DNA of 63,041 bases, filler included, from Asterionella formosa (GCA_002256025.1; 20 parts of 20 records of this genome joined end to end with filler, not necessarily neighbours in it), one strand, 5' to 3'. Shown: positions 11,247-60,499, counted from the whole stretch's first letter. The notes: a model not told the origin generated them from the letters alone. Made by a program: numbers and translations.

Positions 11247-11667
11247 TGTTAAAGTATTACCTTTTGTATAGATCTATATCGTTAGACAAAGAAGACTATA
11301 GATAGAGACGTTCGTTTCTCTTTCCGTTTCTATATTCTTATTGTGAGTTTACTAATCTAGTTTAGGTTGTTCTGTTTGAACAAAACAAACGAACTATTCT
11401 CCAAATGCTGTTTGCATTTCTAGGAACATACAATCATAGATAGACCCATGTCTATCTCACACTTACTGATCATAGGTATTTAACCATGATCATTCATTTC
11501 AAACTATCGGTCTTCCGAAATAGCTTATATTGTCCGGCTCATAATAGTCGGAGTAACAAAGTATAATGTGTGGTTGATGAGAGCTTGGTACATCAAAGTT
11601 GACTCATTCGAATCGTTTGACTCGTTTGACTCCGAGTCCTAACTACGTAGATGAGCTCACTTTAACA
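11247..11667. mobile_element. Solo LTR, family A, with 6-bp TSD GACTAC
   Basis: GACTAC at 11241-11246 and 11668-11673 flanks TGTTAAAGT...ACTTTAACA; second copy at 5004-5425. Confidence 0.92.
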
Positions 11668-19269: not shown

Positions 19270-19318
19270 GAGGCTTTCCGGCGACAAATTGTCAATTTCA
19301 GAAAAATGACCGCAACTT
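19270..19318 (-). repeat. Fragment of repeat family D end
   Basis: Reverse complement AAGTTGCGGTCATTTT...GCCGGAAAGC matches 49673-49720. Confidence 0.6.
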
Positions 19319-20738
19319 AGGGCCCTGGGTACACATGGAGAACTTGTTGTTAAGGATAGGATCCGGATGCCAGGGCAATAGTATCGTAAAAATTGTCGTA
19401 GATAGATATGGCTAAATAAATAGTTTCTCTCCTTCTCCATCATACTAATGGAAAATTACCCCTCCGTATGTAGCCAAACACACAATTTTTACTTCCTCAA
19501 AAATGACATTAACTGGTAACCCTTCCTAGATGTTGTAATTCTTGTGAGTCAGACCTCATATCTAAAGTGGTAGGAGGCTGTACGGTGTATCAATGGAAGC
19601 AAATTTGCCTGCTGTCCCATTAGGTATCCAGCCAGCCATATTCAACAATCTTTATCTTGCAAGGTGAAGAACTTTCTCATTTTTCACTTTATGGAAATAG
19701 TTGTCAAATTAACAATATATCTTAGAAAAATTGCCATCCTGTAGAACTTAAAAAATTTACTCAAGTCTAGTTAGTAAAAGCGAAATCTCACCATATTCCT
19801 GGATCTATTAGTAAAATCAGTCAAATTTAGTCTGAACACTTTTAGTACCGGTATACTCTATCTATTGTCTACAAGGAGTTCCTTGGTCATGTCAAACATT
19901 CATATATGCATATATATATTGTCATGATTCTTCTGTTTGCTTTGTTGGTATACCGGTAGTACAACACCAGCTACCTGGTACCTGGTCCAGTACCAGGTGC
20001 ATGGATATGGTACCTGGTACGGGTACCTGGTTACCAGGGTAGGTACCTGGTACCGGGCACACCAGGATCACACTGATGTACCCTGATGCTGTGTTGAAAT
20101 ATATCGCGCCTACTGGTACTCTGGCGCGCTCCAATACTGCCCTGGAATGACCGGTCAAGATCTGTCTCGCGCCGCTCGTTTGCGTAGTATTATTTTGTTA
20201 TATAAATCCTGTCTATTTCCGTTTAGACATTCCTCAGACTAACTATGTAGCCTTCGGATACCTGTCGACATCAACAGCCTAACAGACACACGATGACAGT
20301 GCTGGTACCATCCTTTGGTTACCGATACTGTAGCCATTGTTGTCAATAATAACCAGCAGCCATACGACAGGTATCATTTACTCAATGGATGGTGACACTT
20401 GGAGGCTCAATCCATCCCAATCCGAATGCAATAACGGTATTCTAATGTGAATGCAGGTAACGGGGGTATATCATAAAATGTGCCTTTCATATCACACCTA
20501 TTGCCGGTATTCTGCACGAGTATAATTGGTTATGTACAATACAGTGGCACAGTAATATCATTCTACCGGTACCTGGTACCTACCGGTAGGCTAGTCTAGT
20601 CCATTTTTTTCGATGGATCTGGGTTCATCGACATTATTGCAAAGGGAAAAAAACTTAATAGCAACTCTCGCCATCATTCATCCTCCTTCCTGCTTCGCAA
20701 TCATCATCCATTACCAAAATATATTGATCAAGCTCATC

Positions 20739-24742: not shown

Positions 24743-26007
24743 TTAAACAATAAAGACTGCAAGAACAATGGCAATGCAAATGACAGAGATGGCATTAATG
24801 GGCCACATCATTGCATCACTTGTGGTGGGGGCCTTGGTGGAAGGGGGAGTGCTTGCTGGTGATCCACTTGCAGAAGCAGGGGTGGGTTGTGACGTTGCAG
24901 TGGACCCAATTATACTGGGAGGAGGTGTCATTGATGGAGCTGCAGTCATAGGAGCACTTGATGGTGCAGATGTAGGAACTCCACCAGCAGCTACTGGGGC
25001 CACTGTAGCAGGAGCCATACTTGGAGCCCCCATGGTATCAATAGCGGTAGGGTTCATGGTTGTCTGTTCCGTACCATTTCCACAGCAAACTCCCGAGAAC
25101 ATGGATTGGTATTCTGCACAGGTGAAGTTGGGGTTAACTGAATTTATGTACAACTCAAGATACCCACATGCAGTATCATTGAAATCTGAACTAGTATCGA
25201 TGAACACACGTGCTGGATCAGGAAGGAGAGTGGAACCACCACAGATTCGACAAGCACCTGCGGAGGCATTAGTGTTGTTACATCCACTGTCAGTATTGAT
25301 GTGGTGGAAATGGATGAAAAGAAGATGGTTAGAGCAGGCTAATGACAATGAGAAGATGGCGTTGAAATGGAATGTCCTCACCAGAGCACACCAGCTGTGG
25401 CCTGCAAGCCAGTGCACTCTTCTGTGGAAAAGGTAGCCAATAGTTGCGCAGCTGCGCAAGTAACATCAATAATTGGCAGGGTTGGATCAGGAATCATAGA
25501 ACCATCCTCACATAGTGGGCAACTCAGCGTAATACCAGGACAACCACAAACTGACTGTTCTGGGTTAAGGACAATGGGGTTAGCTGGACAGGTGGATTCA
25601 CTAAAGTATCCAAGATAATAATCTAGCTCCGAGCAGTTTACATTCCAAAGAGGGAGTGCATAATCCGGATTTCCAGGTGAGGTCCCATTTGAACACAAAA
25701 AGCACTCCTGGACAGAGCCAGGGCACCCACACAAAAAGTCCAAATTAGCAGATGATGTAGCATTCATACACTCTGAGCTATCCGACGGGAACGATTTGAT
25801 GAAATCTTCGACTTGCCCACACGTCGCGCCAATGAGCAGAGGAAGCAGTGCCAAATTTGGATTGTCCTGTGGCACACTTGTAGTGTTCAGTGACAAATCT
25901 GGGTTTGGCACAGCCGAACCATCATGGCACACAGTGCAGTTTTGCGCCAATATAGAAGGAGCAGCACAGATTGCAATAGTAAGGAGATAATGAAGCGCCA
26001 CTTTCAT
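24743..26007 (-). CDS. Secreted Cys-rich repeat protein with mucin stalk and probable GPI/TM anchor; exons 26007-25382 and 25286-24743
   Basis: Signal peptide MKVALHYLLTIAICAAPSILA; four CxxCxxG..P.P...C...CGC-type modules; a 95-bp GT-AG intron (25381-25287) joins the two ORFs as VLC|GC; S/T/P/A stalk; hydrophobic C-terminus. Confidence 0.85.
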
Positions 26008-26583
26008 GGTAACAGCTGGGTGCCACTGCTGATCTGGAGTCAAAGGAAGTCCTCATGGGCATGGTGAGCGATGCTGATATACCAAACAAAAAGCCAAATA
26101 TCAAGCAACAGACCTTTCGGACAGGGATTAAGCAGGAGGGAACAGTAGTTTGAGTTCCTAGTCAGAAAATGTGAGATAACAAGCAAGCAGCAAATGTTGC
26201 AGATATTTGAGCAAAGCAAAGATTTTGAACGTGTTTGCATATAGTAAATTTTATGATTGAGAACCGAACCCCGAAACCTTTTTAAGTTGTCAAGGAACAA
26301 TCGAATCGAAATGATATCAATTATGGATATAAATAAATGCTGTACCGGTAGTTGGAAATGCATACCGGTAATTGTTTTGCCGCTTGGCTGCTTTCCATTG
26401 AAGTAGAAGACGGTTTGTACAGTGGGAAAGAATATGCATGAGAGCTACATAGATTCCGTCGGGGTCAGAAAATGCGCGCACAGAGCGATCATAGAATTAC
26501 CGTATGTTTGTCGACCCTCGTGTGCTGCCAAGCTAAGATGGTTGGAAGAAAGGTGTTTAAAACTTCTGGGGAGCTCGAAGGAA

Positions 26584-26667
26584 TTGGGATGCCTGATGAC
26601 CAACTGGAATCAGGCGCTGATGAGTCAGAATGATTAACAGATTCATCTCTCATGCCGACGAATCAAA
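26584..26667 (+). ncRNA. Degenerate type III hammerhead-ribozyme-like fold
   Basis: Stem I TGCCTGAT/ATCAGGCG, core CTGATGA (26617-26623), stem II GTCAGAATGA/TCATGCCGAC, then GAA; the NUH triplet and A15.1 are non-canonical. Confidence 0.4.
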
Positions 26668-28260
26668 ATAGGTCTTCAAGGACTGAGTACCAATGATAAA
26701 TGCTATTGGTACTCAGTTCTGGAATCAACTAAGTATGAATTGTACTAGCCTGTTGTTACTTGTTACTCAGAAGAATATTGAAATTTAATTCATGCTGCAC
26801 AATCCATCGAAATTTTGAAGAGTTGTTAATTGTTGATCCTCGGTTGATACGGTTGTTTGTTCAAGCAATTGGTCAGGCTTAGTTCATTTGGTCAGTATCA
26901 ATACAGAGAAGAAAGAATTTTACCACCCCCACCACCCGCCTTTAGCATTTGAAACTAGATACCTGGTCTGAGGCATCAAGTAACAATCAATACTCATTTG
27001 GAAATGAAGTTGGTCAGTTGGCACATACTCGAATATGTTTCGTGAGAAAAGTGATTGGGACTTTTGCCCCCTTTTTCTACTGTTTCCTTTTGCCTTGAGC
27101 GAGAAAAAGATGATACAAGAAACAGATGATATGACTGGTGCTCCTAGCGATATTGGGTCCGTGTCTACAGTTATAGATTATATGTTACGAGGACAGAGGG
27201 AAGTAAATTCAATTACCCCAACGTGAGAAAAAAGGATAGTTGATTGAAATTACTTAAATGAATAAAGAAGAAAGTGAACTCCGGTTGTATTTAGAAAATC
27301 CCAGATGACAACAACCCCCCCCGCCTGCAATGAGTGTATATATATGCATAAGTATTATTGTTAGCTATCATGCAACGACAAAGATGTATGTACGCGAAAA
27401 TAATAGATCGGTACATGATCTAGAATATATATACGAGTACTCATCTCTGCCTCCATAACTGAATACATATCAACATATATTAGCTAACTCTATTAAGGTC
27501 TACCTGCTACCCGTATACCGTAAGAATATTGAGCGAACTGATACGATTTACAATTCACTATGATACCGATATATGATTGTGAAGTGTTCTATAGACAAGC
27601 ATGTGGTAGGTACCATGGGTACCATGGTACCAGGTATGGTAGTTAGTGGCAACATCATGACAATGATGATACGCCTATTGTAAACAGATAAATTACGAAT
27701 TATAAATCAATTATTGTTTTCAGCTACTGTTGTTGTTGTTGTTGTATATGTCTAATTGATGTATAACAGTTATGTGCGAACTACTACTAGGGTTTTGATC
27801 CGGCAAGAAATCATGGAGATGTTGTCGTTGCAGTCGAGCGCCATTTTGTTTCCGCCGATTTTCTACTATTTTAGCTATTTTGCAATGAATATCAAAGCTA
27901 TCAAGTCAACAGTTGTTTCACTGCTTGCTAGCGACACATGTATTCTATCTAAGAAAATATTAAATGTGTTAAGCAGTTGTATAAGATTGAAAATTGAAAA
28001 ATCATTAAATGATAATGAGAAATTTCTCATGTTCGATTCATGGCTGAGCGATTGTATAATTATATATGTTTGTTCAGTATATAGAAAATCATGCATTTTG
28101 TGTACAGGTATGTTCATATGATGCATACCGGTATGTTCATACTTCATACTAGTATGATGCATATCAGTATGTACCACAGCCGTTGGCACTTCTGTACATT
28201 TAGCTATACCGGTACTAGGCTACTACGGAGTTTTGTGAAATACATGTATTGGTAAACAAT

Positions 28261-28457
28261 GAGATTTCTCGAATAAGGAATCATAACAGCACTCAGAGTT
28301 GTGATTAGAAAAAAACATTTAACCCCCCCCCCTTTCGTAGCAAGGTTCGGAAACTGGTTTTTTCAGAAAATCATTCATCAAAATTGAGTTTTTGATAAAA
28401 TTAAAATTGATTGGCCAGATCGAAACCGTTTGAAATTTCTAAATGTCTAACTAATAT
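28261..28457 (-). repeat. Dispersed repeat family D (MITE-like) copy
   Basis: Reverse complement of about 49740-49937 (TCGTAGCAAGGTTCGGAAACTGGTTT; GAGATTTCTCGAATAAGGA). Confidence 0.85.
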
Positions 28458-29988
28458 TTGCGAGAGCCTAGTGGCTATTGCGACTGACTTGACTACTACT
28501 ACCACCGGTAAATAGATAACTAGGAGTTTGTATTGAGGCTTTGGCCTTCTCATTTGGAATTTTTATTGAAGCTTCTATGGATTCTCGAATTGGGGCTACT
28601 CAAACTGAAGCTTCCCGAATTGAAGTTTACCTCTGGGTTTAAAAACTAGTTTTATATTCTCATATTTTCTGTTTTACAATTATTTATAGACTGTATTACC
28701 TTAGGGTTGCGCAATATTACCGGAGGATTCGAATTTGAGTGCCTGTCAGTGCCGCAATTCAGTTTCAGCAAAATGACCAAAACTTGCAGTTTACCAGTAT
28801 ATTTATTACCTACATAATGAAAATGCATACTACTGGTAGCATATACAGAATGGTCTCAAAACAAGGCATCATCACAGTGCTTTGCATGTTGAAATCACTA
28901 TACTGTTGCAGATGCATGTGTTTGATCACTGAATTGGATGCTCGTCATTCCATCAATTATTCAAACGGTCTGGATTATAATGTATTTCTTGTAAAGACTG
29001 ATACAGTACGGGATTTGATTACTGTATTATAGCCATTGTTGGTGTGGTATTTATTTTGACTAACAGTAATTCAGTATGATACTGGAAATCGTTTTTTAGT
29101 ATTCTGTGTCTATTACTGGAATACATCATTGCTTTTTGATGGAGAATAATTCCCAAGGAGGATTTAATATAACTACTCGGTGAGTATTATTAATATGGAG
29201 TACAATTTACGATATAATATTCTGTTGACAATTTTAGTAGATTCAGCTACTTGTGTGTTTTCTAAAAGAGTGAGATTAAATTAAATGTAATTTTGAAATG
29301 AAGTTTCGATTGAAACATGGCAACTACTACATGTTTCTGAAATGAATTGTTCTTTTTTCCTTGGAGGTGAGGTTCTTTATAGTTCCTACAATTGTAGCAA
29401 AGTAAATTACATCCTCGTCCTTGTAACATAGTAGTACTATACTATATCTATCTAGCCTAGATAGATTCTAGGACATAGATGTTGCTTGACTGAAATACTT
29501 CTTTCAGGTAGCTCCAATATCATCGATTTTTCTTCAATTCTTTGGACAAAACTGATTTGTCTCTCCAATCACTCTCAGTTTAGGGTTAGGTGAACTTGTT
29601 TGGTAAACATAGGGAAAAACTTCATATAATTTGCCCTTTCAACATTGTTCTTTATCAAATGTCTGAAGGTTGTTAATCTTGATACATCATATTGTGCATT
29701 GTTCCCTCAAACACAATGACTTGTAGGGAAATGTTGTCTTCACACAAAAGTAGAGACCTAACTGGGAATCAGGAATCAAGAATTCTTCTGTGTTTCAAAT
29801 GGCGGGAGGCATTCATGCTTGGTGTTGATGACTCTATTACCGGTAAATGACTCTGTTTTAAATAACGGTATGATAACCATTATCATCATCATCATCATCA
29901 TCGATGCTAATTACCAGGTACCTGGTACCGTAATACCTTTGCTCACCATTTCAGTGCTCACCATTTCAGTGTATTATAAAGTAGTACG

Positions 29989-30561
29989 ATGATGGCTGCA
30001 ACAAGAACAAGAGCAACAACAACAACTCCTTCCAAGATTTTGTTCTTGTACAAGCAATGCCTTCGATCCGCACAACGGATTCCTGAATTGGATCAACGAG
30101 ACACGTACCAAAGTTACATTCGACAAGGCTTTCGTGATGTCAAGCAGGGACGACAAGCTGTCATGGCCATGAAGGATGCTGAGGAACAACTGGAGAGAAT
30201 GGATTACTATCATTCTATACGAGAACAAAGTATGAGACTAAAAATGACAGAATCACAGAAAAAGGTATTACCTAGTAGTACTTGTACCGAAGTGTCAGCG
30301 ACAGCAGCACCAAGGCCTGATACTGCCAGTCAGACCAGTACTGCGACAATTAGAGATACCTCCATTCTTCAGCAATGGATACTTGAGGCCATTCCCGATC
30401 TGCATGAGGATGATGTGCACCGATATGCGCAGCAGTTATCCGAAGATGGATTTGACTCACCTTTTCTGCTTCAAAAAGAATTGAAACTCAACGACCTTTT
30501 CTTTATGAAAAAGGGACATTTACGAGCACTGGTCAGGGCACATGGGATTTCAGACAAATGA
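29989..30561 (+). CDS. LYR-motif (Complex1_LYR) protein with C-terminal SAM-like domain
   Basis: ILFLYKQCLRSAQRIP...YIRQGFR LYR signature; C-terminal WI...YAQQLSEDGFDS...L...DL..MKKGHLRAL resembles SAM. Confidence 0.75.
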   Translation: MMAATRTRATTTTPSKILFLYKQCLRSAQRIPELDQRDTYQSYIRQGFRDVKQGRQAVMAMKDAEEQLERMDYYHSIREQSMRLKMTESQKKVLPSSTCTEVSATAAPRPDTASQTSTATIRDTSILQQWILEAIPDLHEDDVHRYAQQLSEDGFDSPFLLQKELKLNDLFFMKKGHLRALVRAHGISDK

Positions 30562-30843
30562 TTGCCGTCACATGTAGATGAGGCTAAGAATGCCACATAT
30601 TATATTGCAAACGCGCAGAAACTTTCTTATATGATTGTGCAACCTATTGAAGTCGCACGGAACTTGCCAAAGAAGGCGTTCGTGTTCTAACATTAACGTA
30701 AAATGTACAGATGATTAAGAAAGCACTTGAATTTTCTAAACATAATCACATAAACTGGTAACGTGGGCAAACATTGGAGGGTTTAGTCACCTATACATCG
30801 GAAAATTTCCAGTAATCATTTGTACAATTTGATGTATAGTTTT

Positions 30844-32490
30844 TCAAATGGCAACTCTTGGTGAAAGACAAATTTTGAATTCTGGTTTCGCTTTCATAGT
30901 AACAAAGGTAGTAAAGGTGAATTCAATATTCTGCAAGGTGGGAGCAATATGCAATTCAAAGGCTCGGAGGATGGGTGCCAGAATAAGCTGCACCTCCATT
31001 GTTGCAAATTGCTGTCCTACACAGTTTCTCCCTCCAGCCGAAAATGGCAAGTAACAAAATCGATGTCGCTTCTCCTCATTATCAATTCCCCCCGTCGGTA
31101 ACCACCGCTCCGGCGAAAACACAAGTGGATCAGGCCAATACAATGGATGTCGATGCAATAAATGAGGCGAAATAACAAGTCGTGTATTGGCTGGAATGTA
31201 ATGTCCCATGAAATTCTCGTCTCTTGATGTGCGCCGAATGATAATCCCAACAGGTGGATACAATCGTAGCACTTCTTTTAAAAATGCTGCCAAGTAGGTC
31301 ATCTTGTTCAATGCCTCCAAATCAATGGTTTCTGATCCTGGTGCATGTTGAATAATGTCGTCATACACACGCTGCTGAACTTCGGGGTACTTGACAAGAG
31401 CAAAGAATGCCCAATAACACCATGTTGACGTTGTTTCGTGACCTGCAACCAAAAATGTTTTAGCCTCATCTCGTAGCTCAATGTTGCTAAGTGCCTTATT
31501 GGACCGTTCATCATTTTCTGCATTTGTTCCCTCATCCTTGGCATCAAAGAGAAGCTGCAGTAATGATTTATGACTACTTGATGTAGATGAAGATTCTGAT
31601 AATGCTGCTTTGCTCCTTGCGTTGTGAATGACTTGGTCCACAGCTTCATTGAGACATTTGTTAGATCTACGTGTCTTCGGGTTCAGCCAAAGATCCATCC
31701 GAGGATACCCAAGGACAGCAAACACAGCAGTCAAAACAGTTGGTTTTAGGGATTCCAACAAAGATGTGCTTAAACTGTCCGAGCCAGAGGACAACTTGTC
31801 ATCACTATCACTAATTCCCACTGAATTTTGTTTCAACGTCCATTTCTTTTGCAATACATCCAAGGCATGAAAGTCATGAGAAAAGGCAACATCTCCAATG
31901 ATATCGAGGGTGAGAGCGGAAAGATGTTCAGCAACGTCAATGTCGTGCCCATCCATGGCCGTTTTGCTCCAGAACGAAATCAACGTCTCCACCTTGCTTG
32001 GGATTGACGCATTCAACGACTCCTTCAGAAAGCCAGTGTTGAAGGAGGGTTGGATAATGCGCCGATGCCGACTCCAAGCCGCTCCTTCCAACGTTACGAG
32101 GCCGTCACCAAGAATGTTCCTTAGTAGCGGAATCTTCTTGGGGAAGCGAACTGGAGTTTGACTGGACGACGCGGTCAGGACTAGTTTGACAATGTCAGCA
32201 TTTAATAGGAGCACAGATGGCCTGCCAAATAGATCTGTATACTGCAGCATGTCCACATCCTTCACACTGGACCTGCTGATGGCATCCGCCCACCAGCGCT
32301 TGTGAGGCGCCAGGAAGGGTGCGCGAGAAATATCAAGGAAATAGCCAAACAAAAAGGATGTTTTCGGTGGACCTGGAAGATCGTTCAAGGGGGATGTAAG
32401 CCATCGTACGTAAGAGCGGGCGAAGCGATAGAACAGGACAAGCAACGCTAAAAGTGCGGCGGTGGGGAACGCATTAGCCATCACCATCAT
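30844..32490 (-). CDS. Cytochrome P450, ER-anchored, intronless
   Basis: N-terminal TM and PGP hinge, I-helix AGHETT, EVLR (ExxR), PERW, haem motif PFSAGGRNCVG. Confidence 0.97.
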   Translation of the reverse strand: MMVMANAFPTAALLALLVLFYRFARSYVRWLTSPLNDLPGPPKTSFLFGYFLDISRAPFLAPHKRWWADAISRSSVKDVDMLQYTDLFGRPSVLLLNADIVKLVLTASSSQTPVRFPKKIPLLRNILGDGLVTLEGAAWSRHRRIIQPSFNTGFLKESLNASIPSKVETLISFWSKTAMDGHDIDVAEHLSALTLDIIGDVAFSHDFHALDVLQKKWTLKQNSVGISDSDDKLSSGSDSLSTSLLESLKPTVLTAVFAVLGYPRMDLWLNPKTRRSNKCLNEAVDQVIHNARSKAALSESSSTSSSHKSLLQLLFDAKDEGTNAENDERSNKALSNIELRDEAKTFLVAGHETTSTWCYWAFFALVKYPEVQQRVYDDIIQHAPGSETIDLEALNKMTYLAAFLKEVLRLYPPVGIIIRRTSRDENFMGHYIPANTRLVISPHLLHRHPLYWPDPLVFSPERWLPTGGIDNEEKRHRFCYLPFSAGGRNCVGQQFATMEVQLILAPILRAFELHIAPTLQNIEFTFTTFVTMKAKPEFKICLSPRVAI

Positions 32491-32659
32491 GGCGTCGTGA
32501 AACCCAAGACGCCACTACCAGTATAGGGAAAAATAAATACTATTATTTGACTCGATAAAGAAAATAAAACTCGTGCTGGAAAGCAATTTTTGAGCAACTA
32601 ATTCCCTATCATTAATTACAGATCGTTTTACTCACGGAAGGCAAGACTCGCCCGAGGTG

Positions 32660-32845
32660 CTCTCGTGCCTGCGACAGGAGTAACGGTATACATGTGTTCG
32701 AGCCTGAGTGGCGCGAGTAGGTTGACCTTCTCGCAAAGCGTCTATTGGTACTCAAGGCAAGACAGGCCAGAGGCACTCACTCACGTGCCAGCGAAACGAG
32801 TATATATGTGTTCGAGGCTGAGTGGCGCGAGTAGCTTGACCATTC
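32660..32845. repeat. GC-rich repeat family F, two tandem copies upstream of the P450
   Basis: TGTGTTCGAG(C/G)CTGAGTGGCGCGAGTAG(G/C)TTGACC occurs twice about 115 bp apart; a diverged reverse-complement copy is at 41942-41992. Confidence 0.75.
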
Positions 32846-34664
32846 AAGTGGCGCCCCCGGCTCTGCGAGAATGTCACCCTACGAGTGCCATCGGAGGAAG
32901 GTCCGGTACCAGGTAGTCCCCATTTCATGCGCCCCTTTTCAGTAACAATTCACTCCCAATGATTCATGCCATACCTGCCGGACGAGATAGGCCAGCTTTC
33001 GCTTAACAAAATGTTCGTTAAGTAATTTTGGAAAACGTTAGTCTTATTGACAGATGACGATTTGCAGAAGCAAACTCTGAACGTGACTCGGATTTGCCCC
33101 TGATCAACACCTTAAGAAAACCGTCTTCTTACTTCGGAATACAAATAAGAATCATTTACCGGTAACTTGCTGACTTAGAATAGAATTTGCTGATTACGAA
33201 TAGAATATGCTGACAACGACTACCGGTAGAACTTGAGGGCGAATACGAATAGATTTTCTGAATGACCCTTGTGATGCAGACGAAGTGCCTGGTAGGTAAC
33301 TGCAAGTTGCGTTCATTTTGCTTAAATAGACAATATAATACAGAATAAAGAATGCTAAATATTTAAGTTCAGCACAATAATCGAAATTTGCTGGTACTGG
33401 CACCTAAGAATGTAGACTACCTGGTACCGTATGTCCATGAGCCACGGTAAATTTGGTCCGATACCTGGTACCACCTTGTACGATGATGCATGAGGCGTGA
33501 TAATTATTCAGGGCACAATTTTTATGTACAAACAAAGTTTTACGTATGTTCAAACAAACATACCGGTACCATAGCAATATTAGCATGGCTATTAGTACAT
33601 ACCGGTACTCGATACCGGTACCGGTGAGCGATCTTGCGCATCAATACAGATGTATATAGGGTTAGTGTTATATCATATATGTATCAGAACTCAACAATGA
33701 AAGAACTCGACTAACCCTCATTGTATACTTTGGTGTTGACTTAGAGAACAAGTTACACACAAGGATTAACAAATAAGCTCATATATTCAACAAACACTAC
33801 TACTTCTAGTTAGATACTTCACTTTGAATTCAAAAAGAGTCCAATTAGAATTAATAATGTTGATGTCCTCTCAAGTTCCAGTGGTCCCATTGATGAAGGA
33901 TAACAACATACTAAACATCAAGATTCAAACCTCTTTGTGTATCCTTACAAGCCAGGTCGACATTTGGAGTCTTACAGCAAAGATATGATCAATTGACACT
34001 CAGGGGAAGCTTGTTGATTGATTTCAGTAAATCCTGTGACATGGCTAACACATATATCTTCAGTCCAGCAGATTGCTTGCTTGTTCTCCTATTGCTACAG
34101 AATATGCCTAATTGATATCGCCTTGTCTGAATGGATGAGCGTTGCAATGCACCCAGATACTCAGTCCTTTGACAGTTTCTACAAAATCATGGTGAGGTGG
34201 CTGAAGCATTATTGCACTCATGACATGTTCCTTTAAGTCAGCATCAGCGGATGTGGATATTATGAAAACTCGATAAAACCGTTCAATGTGCTGTTGATGA
34301 ATGTCACTGCCTGTCTCAAGACTTTAAAGAATTTCCTAAAACTCGTGATAACTCATCCAGAAGATCAAGAGGTTTCCGCCAAGGAAGATTTGAGGTTGAT
34401 TGTCGTTTTGCTTGATTGACAATGCGCGGCAACAAGTGTTTGAATGGAACAATGAAAAGAACACAAAATAATTGATTCGCTTGGTTTTGACTTACTTCGA
34501 GAGTCAACAATTATTCAAAGATCAACTCAAGCACATCCTCAAGCATGAATTCTACCATAAGCCGAAATCGACTTTGCATCGCTGAAGGCAATTGTGTTAT
34601 GTCGAGAGAACGCTCGTGTCTGATGTCAATTTTATCGCGTGCCTGGTGTCAATTTTCTAAGACA

Positions 34665-35000
34665 AAATCGTATATAAATAGTTGAAGTTGAAGACGATTC
34701 CATGACGCATCAAGAAAATAAGCGTGACTAGTGTCAATTTTAACAAAAGATCGTCTTCGCATTGCTAAATGCAGTCCTGTGATGTATCAAGAATACAACC
34801 ACCATTTCAAGTGTAAATTTGTACATGATAATTTTATACTCAGTGGTAATGGCAGGGCACATGCATTTTAATGCAGCCGGCCACGCATGGGATATGAAAC
34901 AACGGTCAAACATAAGGTTCATGGAGTTAATATTACTAACACTACTAACCTTGTTGCTGTTCGGACTCCTGTTCCTGTTCCTCTGGCGTAGAAATTCTAC
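34665..35000. repeat. Repeat family C nested inside the gypsy element
   Basis: Colinear with 60500-60785 (GTGACTAGTGTCA; GCATTTTAATGCAGCCGGCCACGCA; TTACTAACACTACTAACCTTGTT). Confidence 0.85.
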
Positions 35001-35287
35001 GTTGAGCAAATTATCATACTAACACAGCCCACTCTATTCATGTTTTTCTTCCGTGCATGTTTTACATAAGCAAATCCATGGGTTAACCCTGTGATGATGT
35101 CTGGTTAGGGTTCAGTGCCGAGGGCCATACCTGCTGACTATTATGAATCTGCCCAGGAAATTTTAGTGGTCATGAACCCTCCTGTTGGTCAGTTAGTGGC
35201 CGATGTGCCTAATAAAAAACCAGCAGAATGCTGAACAGATCGCCTTAACAGAAGTATGTGCAACAATAGCAACTAGCTATGCTATGA

Positions 35288-35295
<8 letters not shown>

Positions 35296-35327
<32 letters not shown>
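35296..35327. repeat. (TA)n microsatellite
   Basis: Read directly. Confidence 0.9.
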
Positions 35328-37988
35328 TTATGAGCAACAGCACATTGAATATGTCTTACGTCAATCATTACCTGAATAACTTTTGTTATCACCGCTATTG
35401 TAACGCGGGATGCATTTCATTCTCATGTCATTAGCAACCCAAGGATTGGTGGCTGCGTTGTACTATATACATGACATAAGATGAATATTAATTGATTGCG
35501 GTGGATCCTGATCTTTAACTTATGAATGGATTGTACTTCAGGACATTTTGTTGTAAAATCGAACATTTAAAATTAAATTATACCATGCATAGCAGGTATG
35601 ATCCCATCTTTTTTTCTTTGCCAGTACTCAGCATGATGCTCCCAAAATTTAATCCGTCAGCTTGTATCTTGCAACAGAAGTACCTGGTCTTAGTACCTTC
35701 TGCGAGTTTGCTCATTTGTCCAGCTGATTATTTTATGACGGATAATTTACAAATACCATGTCCTGTCTGCATGGTGGATATATCAGTGTTTTTCTGCATG
35801 TCATGCATTCCTATAATGATACGCACAGAACATTTGCACAATGGTTTGATATATTTTGATACACCTATTAAGGATTATGTTTACACATGGAACATTCAAG
35901 CTCCTAACTATACAGATACGGAAAGATGCTGTTATCATGGCCGAAGTCCTCCAGCACAATTCTATATGAAATGGTCTGTTGAAGAAACTGACTCATTGGG
36001 ATATCGATAAACTCCAACCGACTTCAAATTTTGGTCTTCAAATTTTAAAACAGGATTGAAATGGAACTAGTCCATTTGTATGGTTACCTATGCATACATC
36101 AACAAACTTTTATATCAATGAAAGGATTGTTAGTTGCAGATACTACACTCATGCGTTATCCTGATCGTAATTTTCCTTTCCATATTTTTTAATCATGTTT
36201 CTGATTTTCAATTAAGAAACTTTCAAAGAATTTCGCTCTATGTCATTGAATGCGATTCTACATGTTCACACTGATCATCATATTTTATCTTTATTACCCT
36301 ACACAGAAACTCAACGTGTTCTCCGGTGGAGGATTTATAATGAATAATATCTTCTCACTTTTCACATTATGAAGGGTACTGATAATGTCAAATATTAAAA
36401 CTTCTATCTCTCGCCTCCTGAGGCTTGTGTCTTTGGTGGGGGATGATATTGGACCGAAATCTTCAGCATCAACATCCATTTCTACTTTCTCAATTGAATT
36501 AGATGATAAACCTTTGTTTACCTGTTTCCTCAATCATCCAATTTTGGCAGACAATATTCAATATCCTCTGGATTATAACTCAATACATGATAGACAATTG
36601 CTGGATATACAATTGATTCTCAATAAACAACTCATCTCATTCTCAATCAACAAACACATCCGTTAAAATTTCCCTCTATCAATTTTCATCATATACATTT
36701 AATGTATTTTGTGAAGAATCCAGGAGATACTTGACGTATTGTTATTCCTACATCACTATTGTATCCTATTATTTATTGGTATCATCAGATGTTAGCTCAT
36801 GTGGGTATGACAAGATGAAATGCCACAGTTTCTACACGTTTTTACTATCCTTCATTAAAAGCAAGAGTGGAACATATTGCAAGCATATATGAAACATGGC
36901 AAAACGTACAAAATTATTTGGTGCTTGGTTTTGGTGAACTTCCACTAAGGAATGCATTGTTATTACAATACTCAGAAGTCACAGTGGATTTCATTGGTCC
37001 ATGGAAGATAACAGTGACTGCACAAGCGATTGAATTTCATGCTCCAACTTGAGTTAACACAGTCACCAATTTACCAGAAATTTCACATATCAATAATAAG
37101 ACATCAGAATATATTGCGATGAAATTTAAAAATGATTGGTTAGACAGATATCTCCGTCCAGAAGTTTGTAGAGATGACAATGAAAGTCAATTCATGACAA
37201 TGGAGGTCAATTTACTGGTATTCCTTTCATACACATGTAAGTATTGAATGGAATTAAAATTGGGACCATTACAGTCAAGATTCCACAAACAAATGCTATC
37301 CGTGAACGTTTACATCAATCTATCAGTAACAGTCTATGTACGAGTTATGTTAAAGGCTCATCCTCCAATCAAGGAATTTCAAGTTCAGAATTATTGTGGA
37401 TACTAATATTTATAGTACATTGTGTATTTTCACCAGGAACATGGGTTTTCCAACATGATTTGATCACAGATATGTAATTGATATTGGGATATCAATGTCG
37501 ATAAGTGATAATTGACAAATGACTACGTCGTGATAATTTCCGTCATCGTTCTTGCGATTACAAAGTTGGTGATAAGGTTTCAATCCTACTATTGGATAAT
37601 CCTAGTACTACCTTGGATAACCAAGGACGAGGTCCTTATTCTATTATTCAAGTATATGCCAATGGTACAGTTACTTTTCAACAAACTATGCATAATACGG
37701 AACGAATTAATATTCATTACATCAAACCTTTTCAAAGGTAAAAGGTTTTCCCTTGATGTGGGAGAGTGAGCGATCTTGCGCATCAATACAGATGTATATA
37801 GGGTTAGTTTTATATCATATATGTATCAGAACTCAATAATGAGAGAACTCGACTAACCCTCATTGTATACTTTGGTGTCGACTTGGAGAACGAGTTACAC
37901 ACAAGGATTAACAAATAAGCTCATATATTCAACAAATACTTCTACTTCTAGTTAGATACTTCACCAGTTCCCAGTTCCCAGGTACCAG

Positions 37989-38880
37989 GAAGGTGCGGTA
38001 ATTGCGCCATCTGCGCGCTTTTTTGGGTACAGCCCGCCTGAAGGGCTTTGCAAGTACGACCGACCGTTGGAGTCGGCTGGCTTCCTATCCATGTTCGTTC
38101 TTTTAAGTAAATTTAAATTATGACCGTACTTTGTGATTTGGCGTTCCCTCTTTAATAAACCCTTCAATTTGCTCACTACACGAAAGTTTTGCTCATCGCT
38201 AATAGCATTCGCTCATTACTCAGAGCATTTGCTCATTGCTCTTAGGAATTGCTTGTCGCTAAATAAATTTGCTCAGTACCTCAAATTTTTGCTCATAGCT
38301 AATAAAATCTGCTCATCGCCATGAACTATTTCATTTTCAAATAGTTACCGGTAAAGGCAGGAGCTGGCCCAGATTTTATCGATGTAGAGTTATGTTCGAA
38401 ATATTTTTTTTACGTTTGTAGCTACCAGTACAAAATAATTTTAGCATCATTATAATTTTGTGCATAAATAACATTCACATGAATAAATTTTATGTATGCA
38501 TTTAAATAATTTTACCATCCGATCTCGTTGTTGTCATGGTTGAATTCATTCATGATGACTTTGAAATCGAGTCCAATGCACAGCGATGGTTGTGAAATCG
38601 CTGAAGTAGCTATATTGTTTCTGCTATAGCACCCTGTTTGAGGAATTACTGCACAGTTTCAACTCCAGGTACCTTACTGTCAAGCTCAAGAGGTTTTGCA
38701 CGTAATTTGGTTGGTCATGTAGGCGTGGATTTGCCATGCTCAACACTAAATAGGTTGTATTTAAACGAAATCGTGTGCTCCCACGCCGCTTGATGCGTTT
38801 ACTGAAAGCGCTGATCATGGCGGTTATGTTGATAAATCAAGCGGCGCGGGAGGTTGTAAAATTGAAATTACCGCACCTTC
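37989..38880. mobile_element. Non-autonomous TIR element (PIF/Harbinger-like MITE)
   Basis: Perfect 15-bp TIR GAAGGTGCGGTAATT / AATTACCGCACCTTC; TSD CAG on both sides within TAC-CAG-GTA; about seven internal TTTGCTCA-type repeats at 38168-38316. Confidence 0.85.
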
Positions 38881-38956
38881 CAGGTATCTGGTTGTGTTCA
38901 GATACCGGTACATTGGTTCATTTATATACCGGATATACCATGCTCAAGGTACCAGG

Positions 38957-39144
38957 TGAGCGATCTTGCGCATCAATACAGATGTATATAGGGTTAGTGT
39001 TATATCATGTATGTATAAGAACTCAATAATGAGAGAACTCGACTAACCCTCATTGTATACTTTGGTGTCGACTTGGAGAACGAGTTACACACAAGGATTA
39101 ACAAATAAGCTCATATATTCAACAAATACTACTACTTCTAGTTA
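38957..39144 (+). mobile_element. LTR family B, third copy, truncated by contig end
   Basis: Near-identical to 37767-37954; preceded by TACCAGG. Confidence 0.92.
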
Positions 39145-42924: not shown

Positions 42925-44664
42925 TTCTGGGAGCCAGTCTGGTACCTCATGAGCAATAGAAAGTATCCGGCGAAGAGGTACCTTCGTGGACGCTTTGTGG
43001 GGATTGCCTGGACGACGGGAGACAACATGTGCTACCGCATCTGGACAGATGAAAAAGACCTCATCTCCAGAGAAATCCACCGTAGCGTGGTGCTCCCTCG
43101 GCATCCAGACGAGGAGTTTCCAAGAACCTTGGTCAAATACACAAGCGACTACTTCTTCCCAACTCCCAAATTGCCGAAGAACGGTCCAGAAGTTGTTAGT
43201 GCCAACCTCGAGGGGGGGAGGAAAAGGGTACGGGAACAGAGTAAACAACCTGACGAAGCTGACAAGAACAACGGTGGAACTCGCATAACACCGGGGCCGC
43301 GTGAGGGCAGAAGTAAACGACCGGGCAGTGGAGATCACACCACTTATACCCCAGGTACCGGGGCGCATAAAAACGTGGACATCGCGGAAGGAACCATACC
43401 GGAGAGTACTGATGTGGGAAACCTCGGCCCGGAGGAAGCAGAAGTTCGCAAGCGATGGCTTGAAATGACAGAAGCGGAGGCAAACCGCGTCCTAGAACTA
43501 TATGCACCACCTACCGAGGGGGTAGACTATGCAAATATGAAAACTATTCTTAGTCATAAAACCACTACTAGGGATGGAGTGAAAACCATTACATTCCGAG
43601 TAAAGTACCGGTCGGGAGAAGTGATCCAGTGCGATCTCGATGACCTGAAAATAGATGCGCCATACTCACTCGCAGTCTATCTCAGGCAGAAAAAGATCAT
43701 GTCCCCTACCCTCAGGGAATGGTCTCAGAGAACGCTAGAGACCCTAGATACTTCATTGTATAGGACCAGGCTAATAGAACCAAATACTTCAATCCGGAGG
43801 CGACATGCACATGATGCTAGCGCCACAGTGGTGACCCTGACCCGATGCAACTCAGCCTTCTCCAGTCGGCGGCGGGTGAAAACCAACTCGAAGCCGGGCA
43901 GGAACAAAAGGAGACCGCATCACTCAAGTGGATGTGAAGTCAAATATGGGGTGAAAATCCCCAGGACGGTAGGAGAAGCTATTGACCTGGACAAGCTTAA
44001 TGGTGATGACCTGTGGCACCAGGCAATAAAGAAGGAAATTGGTGCTCTCATGGAGATGCAGACCTTCAACATTCTTGGACCGGACGAATCTAAATCCTTC
44101 AAACGGGATGGATTTCAGTACGCTCGACTGATGATGATATTTGACGTCAAGCAGGATTTACGGAGAAAGGCCCGACTGGTTCTAGGAGGTCACATGATCG
44201 ATGCCTCAGGACACGATACATACGCGACCAACATGAAAGGAATCAGTGCCAGAATCCTCATGCTTATTGCAAGTGCAAACGAACTCAGGGTATTAACAGG
44301 TGATATAGGGAATGCGTATTTGTATGCCAGCACAAATGAAAAGATATTCTGCAGGCTAGGAGAAGAGTTCAGCATAGCAGGGCATGGGGCAACTGGAAGG
44401 ATTGCAGTGCTTGAAAAGGCACTGTATGGCACCAAGAGCGCAGCAAACCGATGGCATGCACACCTAGCAGACACCCTACGATGTATGGGTTTCACAACAA
44501 GCAGGTACGATGCAGACATTTGGTACCAAGCACGTAGTGATGGCTCTGGCTATGATTACATCGGGACACATACTGATGACCTGATGATAGTGGCAAAGAA
44601 CCCGGAAGGGTACTTTGAGGTGCTACAGGAGAAGTATACGATAAAGAAGATTGGCCCACCTACA
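42925..44664 (+). mobile_element. Copia (CoDi-I-like) pol fragment: integrase C-terminus, chromodomain-like module, RT; variant 1
   Basis: GRFVGIAWTTGD; ILSHK...FRVKYRSGE...DAPYSLAVY; KYGVKIPRTVGEA; KARLVLGGH; GDIGNAYL; KALYG; open across the contig. Confidence 0.92.
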
Positions 44665-44764: not shown

Positions 44765-46504
44765 TTCTGGGAGCCAGTCTGGTACCTCATGAGCAATAGA
44801 AAGTATCCGGCGAAGAGGTACCTTCGTGGACGCTTTGTGGGGATTGCCTGGACGACGGGAGACAACATGTGCTACCGCATCTGGACAGATGAAAAAGACC
44901 TCATCTCCAGAGAAATCCACCGTAGCGTGGTGCTCCCTCGGCATCCAGACGAGGAGTTTCCAAGAACCTTGGTCAAATACACAAGCGACTACTTCTTCCC
45001 AACTCCCAAATTGCCGAAGAACGGTCCAGAAGTTGTTAGTGCCAACCTCGAGGGGGGGAGGAAAAGGGTACGGGAACAGAGTAAACAACCTGACGAAGCT
45101 GACAAGAACAACGGTGGAACTCGCATAACACCGGGGCCGCGTGAGGGCAGAAGTAAACGACCGGGCAGTGGAGATCACACCACTTATACCCCAGGTACCG
45201 GGGCGCATAAAAACGTGGACATCGCGGAAGGAACCATACCGGAGAGTACTGACGTGGGAAACCTCGGCCCGGAGGAAGCAGAAGTTCGCAAGCGATGGCT
45301 TGAAATGACAGAAGCGGAGGCAAACCGTGTCCTAGAACTATATGCACCACCTACCAAGGGGGTAGACTATGCAAATATGAAAACTATTCTTAGTCATAAA
45401 ACCACTACTAGGGATGGAGTGAAAACCATTACATTCCGAGTAAAGTACCGGTCGGGAGAAGTGATCCAGTGCGATCTCGATGACCTGAAGATAGATGCGC
45501 CATACTCACTCGCAGTCTATCTCAGGCAGAAAAAGATTATGTCCCCTACCCTCAGGGAATGGTCTCAGAGAACGCTAGAGACCCTAGATACTTCATTGTA
45601 TAGGACCAGGCTAATAGAACCAAATACTTCAATCCGGAGGCGACATGCACATGATGCTAGCGCCACAGTGGTGACCCTGACCCGATGCAACTCAGCCTTC
45701 TCCAGTCGGCGGCGGGTGAAAACCAACTCGAAGCCGGGCAGGAACAAAAGGAGACCGCATCACTCAAGTGGATGTGAAGTCAAATATGGGGTGAAAATCC
45801 CCAGGACGGTAGGAGAAGCTATTGCCCTGGACAAGCTTAATGGTGATGACCTGTGGCACCAGTCAATAAAGAAGGAAATTGGTGCTCTCATGGAGATGCA
45901 GACCTTCAACATTCTTGGACCGGACGAATCTAAATCCTTCAAACAGGATGGATTTCAGTACGCTCGACTGATGATGATATTTGACGTCAAGCAGGATTTA
46001 CGGAGAAAGGCCCGACTGGTTCTAGGAGGTCACATGATCGATGCCTCAGGACACGATACATACGCGACCAACATGAAAGGAATCAGTGCCAGAATCCTCA
46101 TGCTTATTGCAAGTGCAAACGAACTCAGGGTATTAACAGGGGATATAGGGAATGCGTATTTGTATGCCAGCACAAATGAAAAAATATTCTGCAGGCTAGG
46201 AGAAGAGTTCAGCATAGCAGGGCATGGGGCAACTGGAAGGATTGCAGTGCTTGAAAAGGCACTGTATGGCACCAAGAGCGCTGCAAACCGATGGCATGCA
46301 CATCTAGCAGACACCCTACGATGTATGGGTTTTGCAACAAGCAGATATGATGCAGATATTTGGTACCAAGCACGTAATGATGGCTCTGGCTATGATTACA
46401 TCGGGACACATACCGATGACTTGATGATAGTGGCAAAGAACCCGGAAGGGTACTTTGAGGTGCTACAGGAGAAGTATACGATAAAGAAGATTGGCCCACC
46501 TACA
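44765..46504 (+). mobile_element. Copia (CoDi-I-like) pol fragment; variant 2
   Basis: Same length and boundaries as 42925-44664, about 20 substitutions by eye. Confidence 0.92.
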
Positions 46505-46604: not shown

Positions 46605-48344
46605 TTGATGATGATGAAACCCTGGCAATCTCAAATTCACCATTTCCATCTTCTTCAATCAGAAGAGAATATCGAGTACCTCCTGTTTTGGATTTCACAA
46701 TTCCAACGTCAACTGGGACAGCTTCCAATTTGTATTGTAAATCTCCAATATCTTCGCCAAGAAACTGACTACAAGCGGTTCCGATCACCATGTTCTCCAC
46801 CATTCTCGCCCCACTTTGAATATCCATCACATCTTTGCGTTTCTGGGAAGTCCTGGCTGGTAATTTACACAAGAATTTAAGATTCTTTTCCATTAGACCT
46901 CCATTAAAAACCTGTGGACTTCCGAAACGATGAATGTTTCTTACAGTATGCATCTGTTGATGAAACTTCGCAAGCTTCCATCCCTGAGAGGTTGTTGTTC
47001 TCGGGCATTCTTTTACCAGCTTAGTAAAATAGTTGACAACGCTTTGGTGTTCCTGTGGTAAATTTCCCACATCATAACTCTCTTTACTAAACCAGGCATT
47101 GTAGCAGAGCATCCCTTCGAATAGACCTTGAAAGTTTCGAATTCCTTGATTGGTCATACCACTTTCTTCTCGGCAGATTTTGATTCCAGCATCACATGCC
47201 ATGACAACACAGGCAATAAGCATCACTCCGATTCTTTCGTTAGCAGTTATTTTCGTTTTGCAACCATGAAAGCCGAAATTGAAGGAACAACGAGGAAGGT
47301 CTCGGTCACTCTGGTGAAGGAAGAGTTTAGATATGTTGTTGAACAACTGGTCAAACAGTTTTCGATTGGAATTACCCTTCACTGTTTTGGGGCGCCCGAT
47401 CATATAAGAATATAGCACATGAGGTGATCCATTATTCCTTCTTGAATGGAATGGAGTTTTTCAGAAGGAACGTGCCCATTTACACCAAGAGGATCGCCAC
47501 CAAAACACAACTGATACCAAAAGGGATAGATGAATCTTTGGCTCACATTATCCAATAAATCTTTTATGCCCCGGATTAATAGTTCCTCGTCATCAATCTG
47601 ACCTACAGGACTGCATTCATGAGATGGATTGTCCGTTTGATCAAACGGTCAATAACATTCACGACATATTCTGGCAGTCTTTAGATATGTTTTCTTTCGT
47701 CCGCATTGTCCATCTAAACCTTCAGCATCACCGAGAATTAGACCAACCGGAACTTTCACATTAAGTGTAAATTGATTGCCTCCGAAATTGAAAATGTGTT
47801 TGAATCCACCAGCTTGTTGGACATTCTTGACCCCCTCAAGAATCACACCAAGGACAGCGTGATAATCGGATTCCTTTTAATCGGGGGTTAGGGACTGGAT
47901 TTCAGATAGACTTGATGAGGTCAGCTTTGGGATCAATCCGATTGGCCGCCATGCATTGATCTTATTTCTCACATTGGTAGTAAATATACCAAGTGACATT
48001 AGGACAGGCTCCATTGTATACTTTCCTTTTTCAACCGTGTGTGTCTTGTCAATAAAGAACATGAGTGGAACAAGGAAGTCATTTGGCTGAGAACATAAAT
48101 ATTCATGGGCATCTATCCACCAGGTACCAGTGTGAAATTCGGATCTGACACTGGTGGGTTGTGGTGCTTTACACAGATTGACGAAATCAAATGACACATT
48201 TTGTGGTGACATTAGTATGTCATTTGTCAAGAGATTCTTAACCTGAGCCATGAAATCAAAACATACAACATCAATCAGTTTTCCATCATGCAATATGGCC
48301 TGTTTCACCTGGGGAGTTAAATCATTCATGTTAAATCGGTTTTG
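46605..48344 (-). pseudogene. Plavaka/CMC-like DDE transposase pseudogene
   Basis: Three ORF pieces form one protein: FIDKTH...EPV...LG, AWRPIG, GDAEG.D..CG, CREC, EKLHSIQEG, KFHQQMH...FGSP...E..LK; in-frame stops at 47877 and 47649 and a frameshift near 47420. Confidence 0.75.
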
Positions 48345-49466: not shown

Positions 49467-49667
49467 TGAAGTATCTACTGGTAACTAGAAGTAGTAGTAT
49501 TAGTTAATCCTTGTGCGCATCTTGATCTCCTACCGGTAGGTTGACACTAAAGTACCGGGGTATTCAAATAGTTGTTTGTCGAGTTCTCTCCTGATAGAGT
49601 TCTGATATATCTACCGGTATGTAAACCTAACCCTATAGGTATGTCTGGTGTTGAGCGAGATCGCTCA
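49467..49667 (-). mobile_element. Old, diverged solo LTR of family B
   Basis: Begins TGAAGTATCT and ends AGATCGCTCA, the reverse complement of the family B ends; flanks CCTGG/CCTGC. Confidence 0.85.
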
Positions 49668-49937
49668 CCTGCAAGTTGCGGTCATTTTGCCGAAAATGGA
49701 ACGCGGCGCCGGCAAGCACTGATATTCGACTCCCCGCTAATATTACTTAGACATTTAGAAAACTCAAACGGTTTCGCGCTGGCCAATAAATTTCCTTATT
49801 ATCAAAATCTAATTTTAAAGAATAATTTTCTGAAGAAACCAGTTTCCGAACCTTGCTACGATTAGGGGTTTTTGGATTGGGGGGGTTTCCCCCTAATCGC
49901 AATTTTGAGTTTCAAGACTCCTTATTCGAGAAATCTC
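49668..49937 (+). repeat. Dispersed repeat family D copy
   Basis: Matches 28261-28457 and 19270-19318 in reverse complement. Confidence 0.85.
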
Positions 49938-50058
49938 CTAGTTTATATGCATTTCTGTTTTCAAACAGTGGTTGTGGTAAATATCGTTATGCATCATACA
50001 TAGGAGTACTACGTAGTACATCCATCTTGCATCCCTGTATGCATACCTATATCAACTA

Positions 50059-60377: not shown

Positions 60378-60499
60378 CCCTAACCTTTCAGTGCAGGAGC
60401 ATTCGCATGGCGTTCCGAATGAGCAGGCCTTATTTCATTAATGAAACTCTTTAATTTAGTTGAATTACCTGCAGTAAAATAGTATGATGAATGTATAGA

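Follow-up and report, generated by a model that had tools for sequence, protein, structure and literature searches.

A palindrome most likely left by transposon excision, and its apparent targeting by a Ty3/gypsy-like retrotransposon, in Asterionella formosa DNA

Two unrelated mobile elements border on the same short word in a stretch of DNA from the alga Asterionella formosa (GCA_002256025.1; 63,041 nt with filler, referred to below as the window): the long terminal repeats (LTRs) of a retrotransposon family, LTR B, and the inverted ends of a miniature inverted-repeat transposable element (MITE), MITE-1, both meet CC(W)GG, i.e., CCGG or CCWGG, where W is A or T. The locus raises the question of what made this word and which elements choose it. 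A first-pass annotation had answered that a retrotransposon and a DNA transposon share a landing pad produced by a third class of element. Our analysis leads to a different account, in which the palindrome TACC(W)GGTA is most likely the footprint of the departure of a cut-and-paste transposon. The scheme as a whole, comprising a self-made motif as scar, re-use of scars by the transposon, and LTR B aiming at the scar core, is in our judgment probable; on the sharper proposal, that a Ty3/gypsy-like lineage is near site-specific for TACCWGGTA, a word left or tipped by another transposon that re-hits its own scars, we are evenly divided.

The window (positions 1-63041) chains 20 contigs via 100-bp linkers (44 Ns, a 12-nt word with stops in all frames, and 44 Ns) located at 1743-1842, 3585-3684, and so on up to 61206-61305, leaving 61,369 non-N bases. 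One contig of 28 kb (11050-39144) stands in the middle of the chain, and the nineteen others, each of about 1.74 kb, are ordered from longest to shortest. Because the window joins unrelated contigs, features on separate contigs are not genomic neighbors, and the LTR B copy at 49467-49667 does not belong to the contig that carries 33600-39144. A slash in the junctions quoted below marks the boundary of an element.

Results

The palindrome TACC(W)GGTA and the ends of resident transposons

The word TACCGGTA was found 33 times against 0.28 expected in 61 kb, and TACCWGGTA was found 31 times against 0.21 expected, for a total of 64 exact TA-CC(W)GG-TA palindromes. Neither count was reached in any of 100 shuffles, confirming that the excess is not a matter of chance. 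The shorter word ACC(W)GGT occurred 92 times within the same 61 kb. TA was present on both sides of 33 of the 141 CCGG and 31 of the 125 CCWGG words of the window, and control palindromes (e.g., TA-GGCC-TA and AT-CCGG-AT) numbered only 0 to 2. All but one of the 64 palindromes fell outside open reading frames (ORFs) of at least 200 amino acids, which occupy 23,926 of the non-N bases. The density was about one intact copy per kb, with marked clustering, since 18 of the 63 distances between neighbors were 30 bp or less.

Halves of this palindrome form the tips of resident DNA transposons. MITE-1 is an unexcised copy that reads TA/CCAGGAAGGTGCGG...CCGCACCTTCCAGG/TA, i.e., TA/CCAGG...CCAGG/TA. Its terminal inverted repeats have 19 nt common to both ends with one mismatch (base 3), and the inverted arm extends to 26 nt, with 92% complementarity, once the flanks are counted. 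A second family, MITE-2, contributes ends that start at 49668, 33299, 28791, and ~19323 (Table 1). Alignment of six ends from the two families gave the consensus (C/A)C(W/T)G(G/C)AAG(G/T)TGCGGT(A/C)AT, and the flanks differed outside the TA. Since the six ends align while the flanks beyond the TA vary, CCWG is part of the transposon and the duplicated target is TA, which is present on both sides of MITE-1 and before MITE-2b and MITE-2c. Because CCWG belongs to the transposon end, the motif is composed of TA, the outermost end bases, and TA, matching the form of Tc1/mariner footprints, described in PMC6943129 as 2 to 4 nt from the start or finish of the element, enclosed by TA dinucleotides.

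The motif was also found as an insertion within an older element. Comparison of B3, a solo LTR and diverged member of the B family, with LTR B revealed four insertions of at least 4 nt, each of them a CC..GG filler placed at a TA (CCGG; TACCCCGG; CCGGTAG; TACCAG). The last of these changed TAGTTAGATAC exactly into TAGTTA-CCAGTA-GATAC, i.e., TA into TA-CCAG-TA. B3 additionally carries the 2-nt filler CC between two TAs. Clean scar indels were not found in the other paralogue pairs compared (162-610 with 3685-4135, 34660-34975 with 60490-60770, and MITE-2a with MITE-2c). TACC(W)GGTA is most likely a scar, the footprint of the departure of a cut-and-paste transposon.

According to the mechanism that we propose, a family of cut-and-paste DNA transposons with inverted ends beginning CCWGG, including MITE-1 and the MITE-2 copies as noncoding members, would insert at TA and duplicate it, in the manner of Tc1/mariner elements. 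Excision would leave the two TAs plus the outermost 2 or 3 bases of each end, rejoined by end-joining, and the outcome, TA-CCGG-TA or TA-CCWGG-TA, would build up in noncoding DNA. With a 3-nt overhang, the tails of MITE-1 would be CCA and CCT, the last bases of which could pair to give TACCAGGTA, whereas loss of these paired bases would give TACCGGTA; the kind of transposase, the length of the overhang, and the route of repair are inferred.

Apparent re-use of scars by the DNA transposons

GG directly preceded the TA in 47 of 128 scar flanks versus 7.7% for all TAs, with an additional enrichment of C at position -4, pointing to a tendency of scars to adjoin earlier ones, which have often decayed. 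The same dinucleotide preceded the TA in four of the five transposon ends that could be read from alignments (the left end of MITE-1, MITE-2a after removal of B3, MITE-2b, and MITE-2c); the right end of MITE-1 has GA instead. The reconstructed target of MITE-1, CCAGG-TA-TCTGG, is a near-palindrome made of two scar halves. Thus, the DNA transposons seem to prefer TAs bordering older scars. Either the transposase prefers the context GG/TA/CC, which each scar half-creates, or insertions fall in hotspots. New insertions favoring a TA beside an older scar (GG/TA) would generate arrays of mixed units spaced 6 and 7 bp apart.

Junctions of LTR B with the CC(W)GG core

The three LTR B copies on the 28-kb contig are 197 nt long, run from TG to CA, and are 95 to 98% alike; the interior of B1 between its LTRs is of ~3.9 kb. 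Because a polypurine tract directly precedes the 3' LTR, the LTR start can be placed at the TG; this tract, GGGAGAG, was found immediately before the 3' LTR in B1 as well as in seven of the ten loci retrieved from metagenomes. The sole Pfam match of LTR B was to Integrase_H2C2 at the 3' end of the interior (E value of 3.9e-4; 20.9 bits, below the cut-off of 25.5). Pfam did not detect a reverse transcriptase domain in the interior, and every copy seen contains stops. The C-terminal reading ends with ...GRGPYSIIQVYANGTVTF... just ahead of the polypurine tract, a stretch that we take to be the "GPY/F" region of gypsy integrases. Judged by these features, LTR B looks Ty3/gypsy-like.

The 5' junctions in the window are ...GATACCGGTACCGG/TGAGCG at 33625 for B1 (TACCGG/TG) and ...AAGGTACCAGG/TGAGCG at 38957 for B2 (TACCAGG/TG). 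The 3' junction of B1 at 37963 reads ...GATACTTCA/CCAGTTCCCAG, i.e., CA/CCAGTTC CCAGTTC CCAGGTA, after which MITE-1 begins. B3 extends from ...AAAGGTACCTGG/TGAAGTATC (49467) to ...GATCGCTCA/CCTGCAAG (49667), which corresponds on the plus strand to GGTACCTGG/LTR/CCTGCAAGTTGCGGTCAT, the right flank being the tip of MITE-2a. Its apparent target duplication, CCTGG/CCTGC, is of 5 bp with four of five bases matching. Removal of the LTR and of one 5-nt word restores TA/CCTG(G/C)AAGTTGCGG, an ordinary TA-plus-end, suggesting that B3 entered a transposon end already in place, within its five outermost bases.

Since the three window junctions gave rise to the hypothesis, flanks from metagenomes provided the only true test. 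When metagenomes were scanned for the initial 25 nt of the LTR, 10 loci were identified, of which 7 consisted of the polypurine tract, the LTR, and the primer-binding site without host flank and 3 were flanked by host DNA. Two of the three flanks fit the motif, reading GTACCTGG/TG and GTACCAGG/TG within ...ACAGGTACCTGG/TG (locus L006) and ...GGGGTACCAGG/TG (locus L010), respectively. By our own arithmetic, two exact matches out of three have a binomial probability of ~8e-6 at a background motif frequency of 0.16% per oriented position. No match to the LTR B start was found in the collections of viral contigs and genome contigs. Joints in Logan contigs supplied a second set of flanks, including a 3' flank reading CA/CCAG+GTACC..., but both Logan joints were given no weight as a test because a listing of joints that fit on both sides favors motif-like flanks. 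Among the matches listed for 19200-39144 in four sequencing runs, no contig skipped an LTR or a MITE to present an empty site.

Altogether, a TA-CC(W)G context was found in five of seven LTR B events, comprising four exact 5' junctions and B3, in which the context is on the 3' side (CCAGGTACC, a transposon tip). The two that do not fit read CTTGG and CTAAG, and one of the seven comes from the biased joint listing. The junction strings quoted by the first-pass annotation were all present at their positions, and its claim that LTR B aims at CC(W)GG holds for the three window copies, one of them with unmatched flanks, and for two of the three independent metagenome flanks. On this small sample of junctions, the specificity of LTR B appears strong but not absolute. 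We propose that the LTR B integrase, presumably by reading the DNA sequence itself, would place a 5-bp staggered cut on the CCWGG core, located either in a healed scar (TA-CCWGG-TA) or in the tip of a resident transposon (TA/CCTGC...). Flanks of the form ...TACCWGG/TG...CA/CCWGGTA... follow from a 5-bp cut set on this core.

Competing explanations

The junctions could alternatively result from end-joining of retrotransposon cDNA into breaks made by a transposase at TA/CCWGG, without any sequence choice by an integrase. Yeast provides a precedent for cDNA capture at breaks; the junctions also fall where the transposase cuts, and B3 is located exactly at an intact transposon tip. However, every LTR B copy starts exactly with TG and ends exactly with CA, with no bases lost or added, and these ends, together with the B3 duplication, point to an integrase rather than to end-joining capture. 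The duplication of 5 bp is an integrase signature, Tc1/mariner footprints being limited to 2 to 4 terminal nt (PMC6943129). In addition, the full CCWGG is retained on the LTR side of healed scars, and one copy occupies an ordinary site inside a copia element. We consider cDNA capture unlikely.

The first-pass annotation had involved three parties, a third class of element producing CC(W)GG and both LTR elements and a MITE inserting there, the latter in TAC-CAG-GTA with a 3-bp duplication. This parsing is formally possible for MITE-1 alone, in which CAG/GAAGG...CCTTC/CAG combines an exact direct repeat of 3 bp with inverted ends free of mismatches. It is opposed by the alignment of CCWG within a conserved end in two families at six sites with unlike flanks, by the scars of B3, which duplicate TA and not a 3-bp word, and by the exact composition of the motif as TA, outermost end bases, and TA. 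No candidate for the third class was seen in the window. Nor is one needed, because MITE-1 itself carries the motif halves: transposons of the MITE's own kind, with ends of CCWGG beside a TA duplication, would make the motif, and we regard the three-party account as very unlikely. What stands of the earlier description is the MITE itself, on the plus strand and with inverted ends, although its limits are better set at 37985-38884, with TA on each side, than at 37989. For the same reasons (TA duplicated by the scars in place of a triplet and CCWG inside the conserved end at six ends), we rejected assignment of the ends to a class generating 3-bp duplications (CACTA or PIF/Harbinger-like). The TWA duplication typical of Harbinger is absent at MITE-1.

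Both types of element might instead favor a host motif, either a protein-binding site or a microsatellite with a 6- to 7-bp unit. The sequence is a perfect palindrome, forms tandem arrays at 6- to 7-bp spacing, and is confined to noncoding DNA, as such a motif could be. The arrays nevertheless mix CCGG, CCAGG, and CCTGG units. Seven pairs of scars have a common TA, and their fillers differ in three, which disfavors pure slippage. The host-motif explanation is also at odds with the appearance of the motif as fresh insertions at TA within an old LTR (B3) and with the presence of its halves at the tips of resident transposons, and we hold it to be highly improbable.

Random insertion of LTR B into motif-rich DNA (six motifs in the 225 bp before B1, and the strong clustering described above) is scarcely credible in view of the exact phase CC(W)GG/TG in four of seven 5' junctions, the lack of any other exact motif in the 400 nt of flank at L006 and the 155 nt at L010, and the probability of obtaining at least four of seven 5' junctions exactly behind TACC(W)GG, which is 2e-10 at the window motif frequency and 3e-5 even if a local density of 3% is assumed.

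Several observations weigh against the scheme of a scar targeted at its core. The window junctions generated the hypothesis, and its independent test rests on three flanks. One of these three (locus L002), ...CAACTTGG/TG, reads CTTGG and lies inside a copia-type reverse transcriptase sequence; homology of this flank to a MITE-2 end was considered and dropped, since the flank translates as the copia-type enzyme. The first Logan joint, ...GGTACCACTAAG/TG (...GGTACC+ACTA+AG/TG, i.e., CTAAG), does not match the motif. Both sides are visible in a single LTR B copy, B3, the duplication of which has one mismatch. B1 lacks a matching duplication (ACCGG/CCGG on the 5' side versus CCAGT on the 3' side), presenting two junctions but no clean target; its LTRs are 96.0% alike versus 97.9% for the B1 3' LTR and the B2 LTR, and B1 may be a recombinant. 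On the DNA transposon side, MITE-1 taken alone fits a 3-bp (CAG) or a 5-bp (CCAGG) duplication equally as well as TA, and slippage may contribute to the scar arrays, the units being identical in four of the seven adjacent pairs. No transposase ORF for the CCWGG ends was found in the window by Pfam analysis of 31 ORFs and of the six frames of MITE-1 and MITE-2a, so that the assignment of the family as TA-targeting and mariner-like is one of anatomy alone.

The idea of a shared landing pad survives in part. Because DNA transposons seem to favor TAs beside scars, both classes of element share the pad while occupying separate places in it, the DNA transposons at the bordering TAs and LTR B at the core. 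Scar formation followed by colonization, as the first-pass annotation put it, is a fair description. The role given there to a second LTR family, LTR A, was not borne out. The LTR A end at 11667 is followed by GACTACCAGGTACCGG, and a scar, TACCAGGTA, starts at 11671; the LTR A duplication, GACTAC, overlaps the first three bases of this scar, the core of which is not duplicated. A second LTR A copy (~5004 to the contig end) is preceded by ...GGCATGGTGA, and the motif is absent within 30 nt. At most a neighbor of the motif, LTR A lends no support.

Other features of the window

Table 1. Positions of LTR elements, MITEs, and scar arrays in the window
Feature	Positions	Strand	Remarks
Solo LTR A (TGTTAAAG...CTTTAACA)	11247..11667	+	duplication GACTAC at 11241-46 and 11668-73
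MITE-2d, decayed end (AAGTTGCGGTCAT core)	19301..19323	-	beside CCCTGGGTA
Mixed scar array	19951..20052	.	CCGG, CCTGG, and CCAGG units between TAs
Further mixed scar arrays	20564-20588, 22059-22107, 33418-33624, 49179-49201
MITE-2c, relative of MITE-2a	28253..28791	-	end at 28768-28791, then TA and CCAGTA
MITE-2b end (ACTGCAAGTTGCGTTCATTTTGC)	33299..33321	+	CTGGTAGGTA just before
B1 5' LTR, 197 nt, TG...CA	33625..33821	+	upstream flank ...GATACCGGTACCGG
B1 internal region	33822..37766	+	degenerate, stops in all frames; integrase remnants at 3' end
B1 3' LTR	37767..37963	+	downstream flank CCAGTTC CCAGTTC CCAGGTA
MITE-1, noncoding, inverted ends	37985..38884	+	TA at 37983-84 and 38885-86
MITE-1 ends			left CCAGGAAGGTGCGGTAATT; right (reverse complement) CCTGGAAGGTGCGGTAATT
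B2, LTR cut by assembly gap	38957..39144	+	upstream flank ...AAGGTACCAGG
B3, diverged solo LTR of B family	49467..49667	-	CCTGG left, CCTGC right; 4 scar-type insertions
MITE-2a, end CCTGCAAGTTGCGGTCATTTTGC directly adjoining B3	49668..49945	+	body homologous to 28253-28789

The second end of MITE-2a was not found in its contig, which stops at 50183. Relative to MITE-2a, MITE-2c contains an insertion of ~250 bp (28463-28712). Within MITE-1, 38166-38316 contains five to seven 20-bp direct repeats built on TTTGCTCAT, which may be internal transposase-binding sites or merely satellite-like. The stretch GGTACCATGGGTACCATGGTACCAGGTA at 27609-27636 includes TA-CCATGG-TA, a 6-nt filler retaining three bases per end (CCA+TGG) that fits a 3-nt overhang and is the single exact TACCWWGGTA of the window. 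In one sequencing run (X1), contig depths summed to ~1e6 across the B1 interior (33830-37819) versus ~1e3 in neighboring single-copy bins, which suggests a very high copy number for the family, a summed depth not being a copy number.

The DNA of the window is eukaryotic and encodes, among others, a cytochrome P450, a fatty-acid desaturase, an aminotransferase, and a copia-type reverse transcriptase; the stretch 30000-39144 is present in sequencing runs labelled as algae, freshwater, and lake metagenomes. In two pairs of whole contigs, the partners are nearly identical and free of indels and probably represent two further retrotransposon families: 42925-44664 and 44765-46504 (98.9% over 1740 nt), which code for the copia-type reverse transcriptase (RVT_2), and 7368-9108 and 52122-53858 on the reverse strand (96.4% over 1600 nt), which contain a long ORF that bears a CCHC-like motif and matches nothing in Pfam. 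An ORF fragment at 47880-48344 on the minus strand matches the Plavaka transposase family (E value of 1.8e-10), a class of DNA transposon distinct from the CCWGG-ended elements. Repeats are borne by 59772-60400 and 15464-16802, namely, 24-bp tandem repeats coding for a Pro/Thr-rich protein (PT repeat) and ~300-bp repeats within a 984-amino-acid Lys/Ser-rich ORF.

Discussion

Excision footprints and TA-flanked MITEs are textbook features of DNA transposons. The scars described here resemble Tc1/mariner footprints, such as the TAC(A/T)GTA of Sleeping Beauty, in combining a TA duplication with 2 to 4 terminal bases joined by end-joining (PMC6943129). They differ by a filler of 4 to 5 nt, versus 3 nt for Sleeping Beauty, by a density of ~1 per kb with mixed tandem arrays, and by the fact that no transposase is linked to the CCWGG ends. 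A report of such a density or of mixed arrays was not found in the open-access literature. MITE-1 is similar to mariner-derived MITEs of the MADE1/Hsmar1 type, which are short, noncoding, and TA flanked, with inverted ends of ~19 to 26 nt, but its length, 900 bp, is large for a MITE. Two weak leads in the end sequences also point toward mariner. Mos1-tribe mariner ends likewise begin with CCAGG, according to PMC3419177, and the MITE-1 end GGTGC..GTAATT(GCG), a pattern with two matches in the window (both MITE-1 ends) versus 0.16 expected, resembles the Hsmar1 end core (PMC8327481), a likeness noticed post hoc between very distant hosts and only a lead.

For LTR B, a parallel is offered by the palindromic target preference of LTR retrotransposon and retroviral integrases, such as that of Tos17 (ANGTT, duplication, AACNT), with a 5-bp staggered cut centered on a 2-fold symmetric site as proposed for LTR B. 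In PMC6911290, where the Tos17 consensus is cited, a "slight insertion preference" is mentioned for 14,813 plant insertions, and palindromic target preference is attributed to integrase multimers. LTR B differs from such weak integrase preferences by an exact 6- to 7-nt word in four of seven 5' junctions and by a target that would be manufactured by another transposon. Targeting of another mobile element or of a multicopy sequence is known among retrotransposons, examples being Tx1L in Tx1D and R1 and R2 in ribosomal DNA. As with LTR B, insertion is into a repeated, harmless sequence provided by the genome or by another element, but Tx1L, R1, and R2 are non-LTR elements with endonucleases of their own, whereas LTR B appears to be an integrase-bearing LTR element. 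Strict target specificity is stated to be confined to non-LTR retrotransposons in the abstract of PMC3706591. We found no description of the motif, or of LTR elements targeting scars, in the open-access literature, which cannot show absence. What is unusual here is how densely the scars lie and how they are arrayed, together with an LTR family that strongly prefers a defined word probably manufactured by another transposon.

Should a genome-wide logo of LTR B flanks prove flat, what would be left is commonplace transposon footprints in DNA rich in repeats. Targeting of a strict sequence is familiar from non-LTR retrotransposons and rare for LTR elements, the integrases of which usually display no more than faint palindromic preferences. 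If our proposal is true, an integrase reading a defined palindrome of 9 bp would serve as a natural model for the acquisition of sequence specificity by retroviral-type integrases, and one mobile element would be building the niche of another, the scars acting as harmless docking sites throughout the genome and presumably offering LTR B a safe harbor. At about one per kb, the excision scars would provide a direct count of past cut-and-paste events, a readable ledger in the noncoding DNA that would allow end-joining repair and the re-use of targets to be studied in an alga without experiments.

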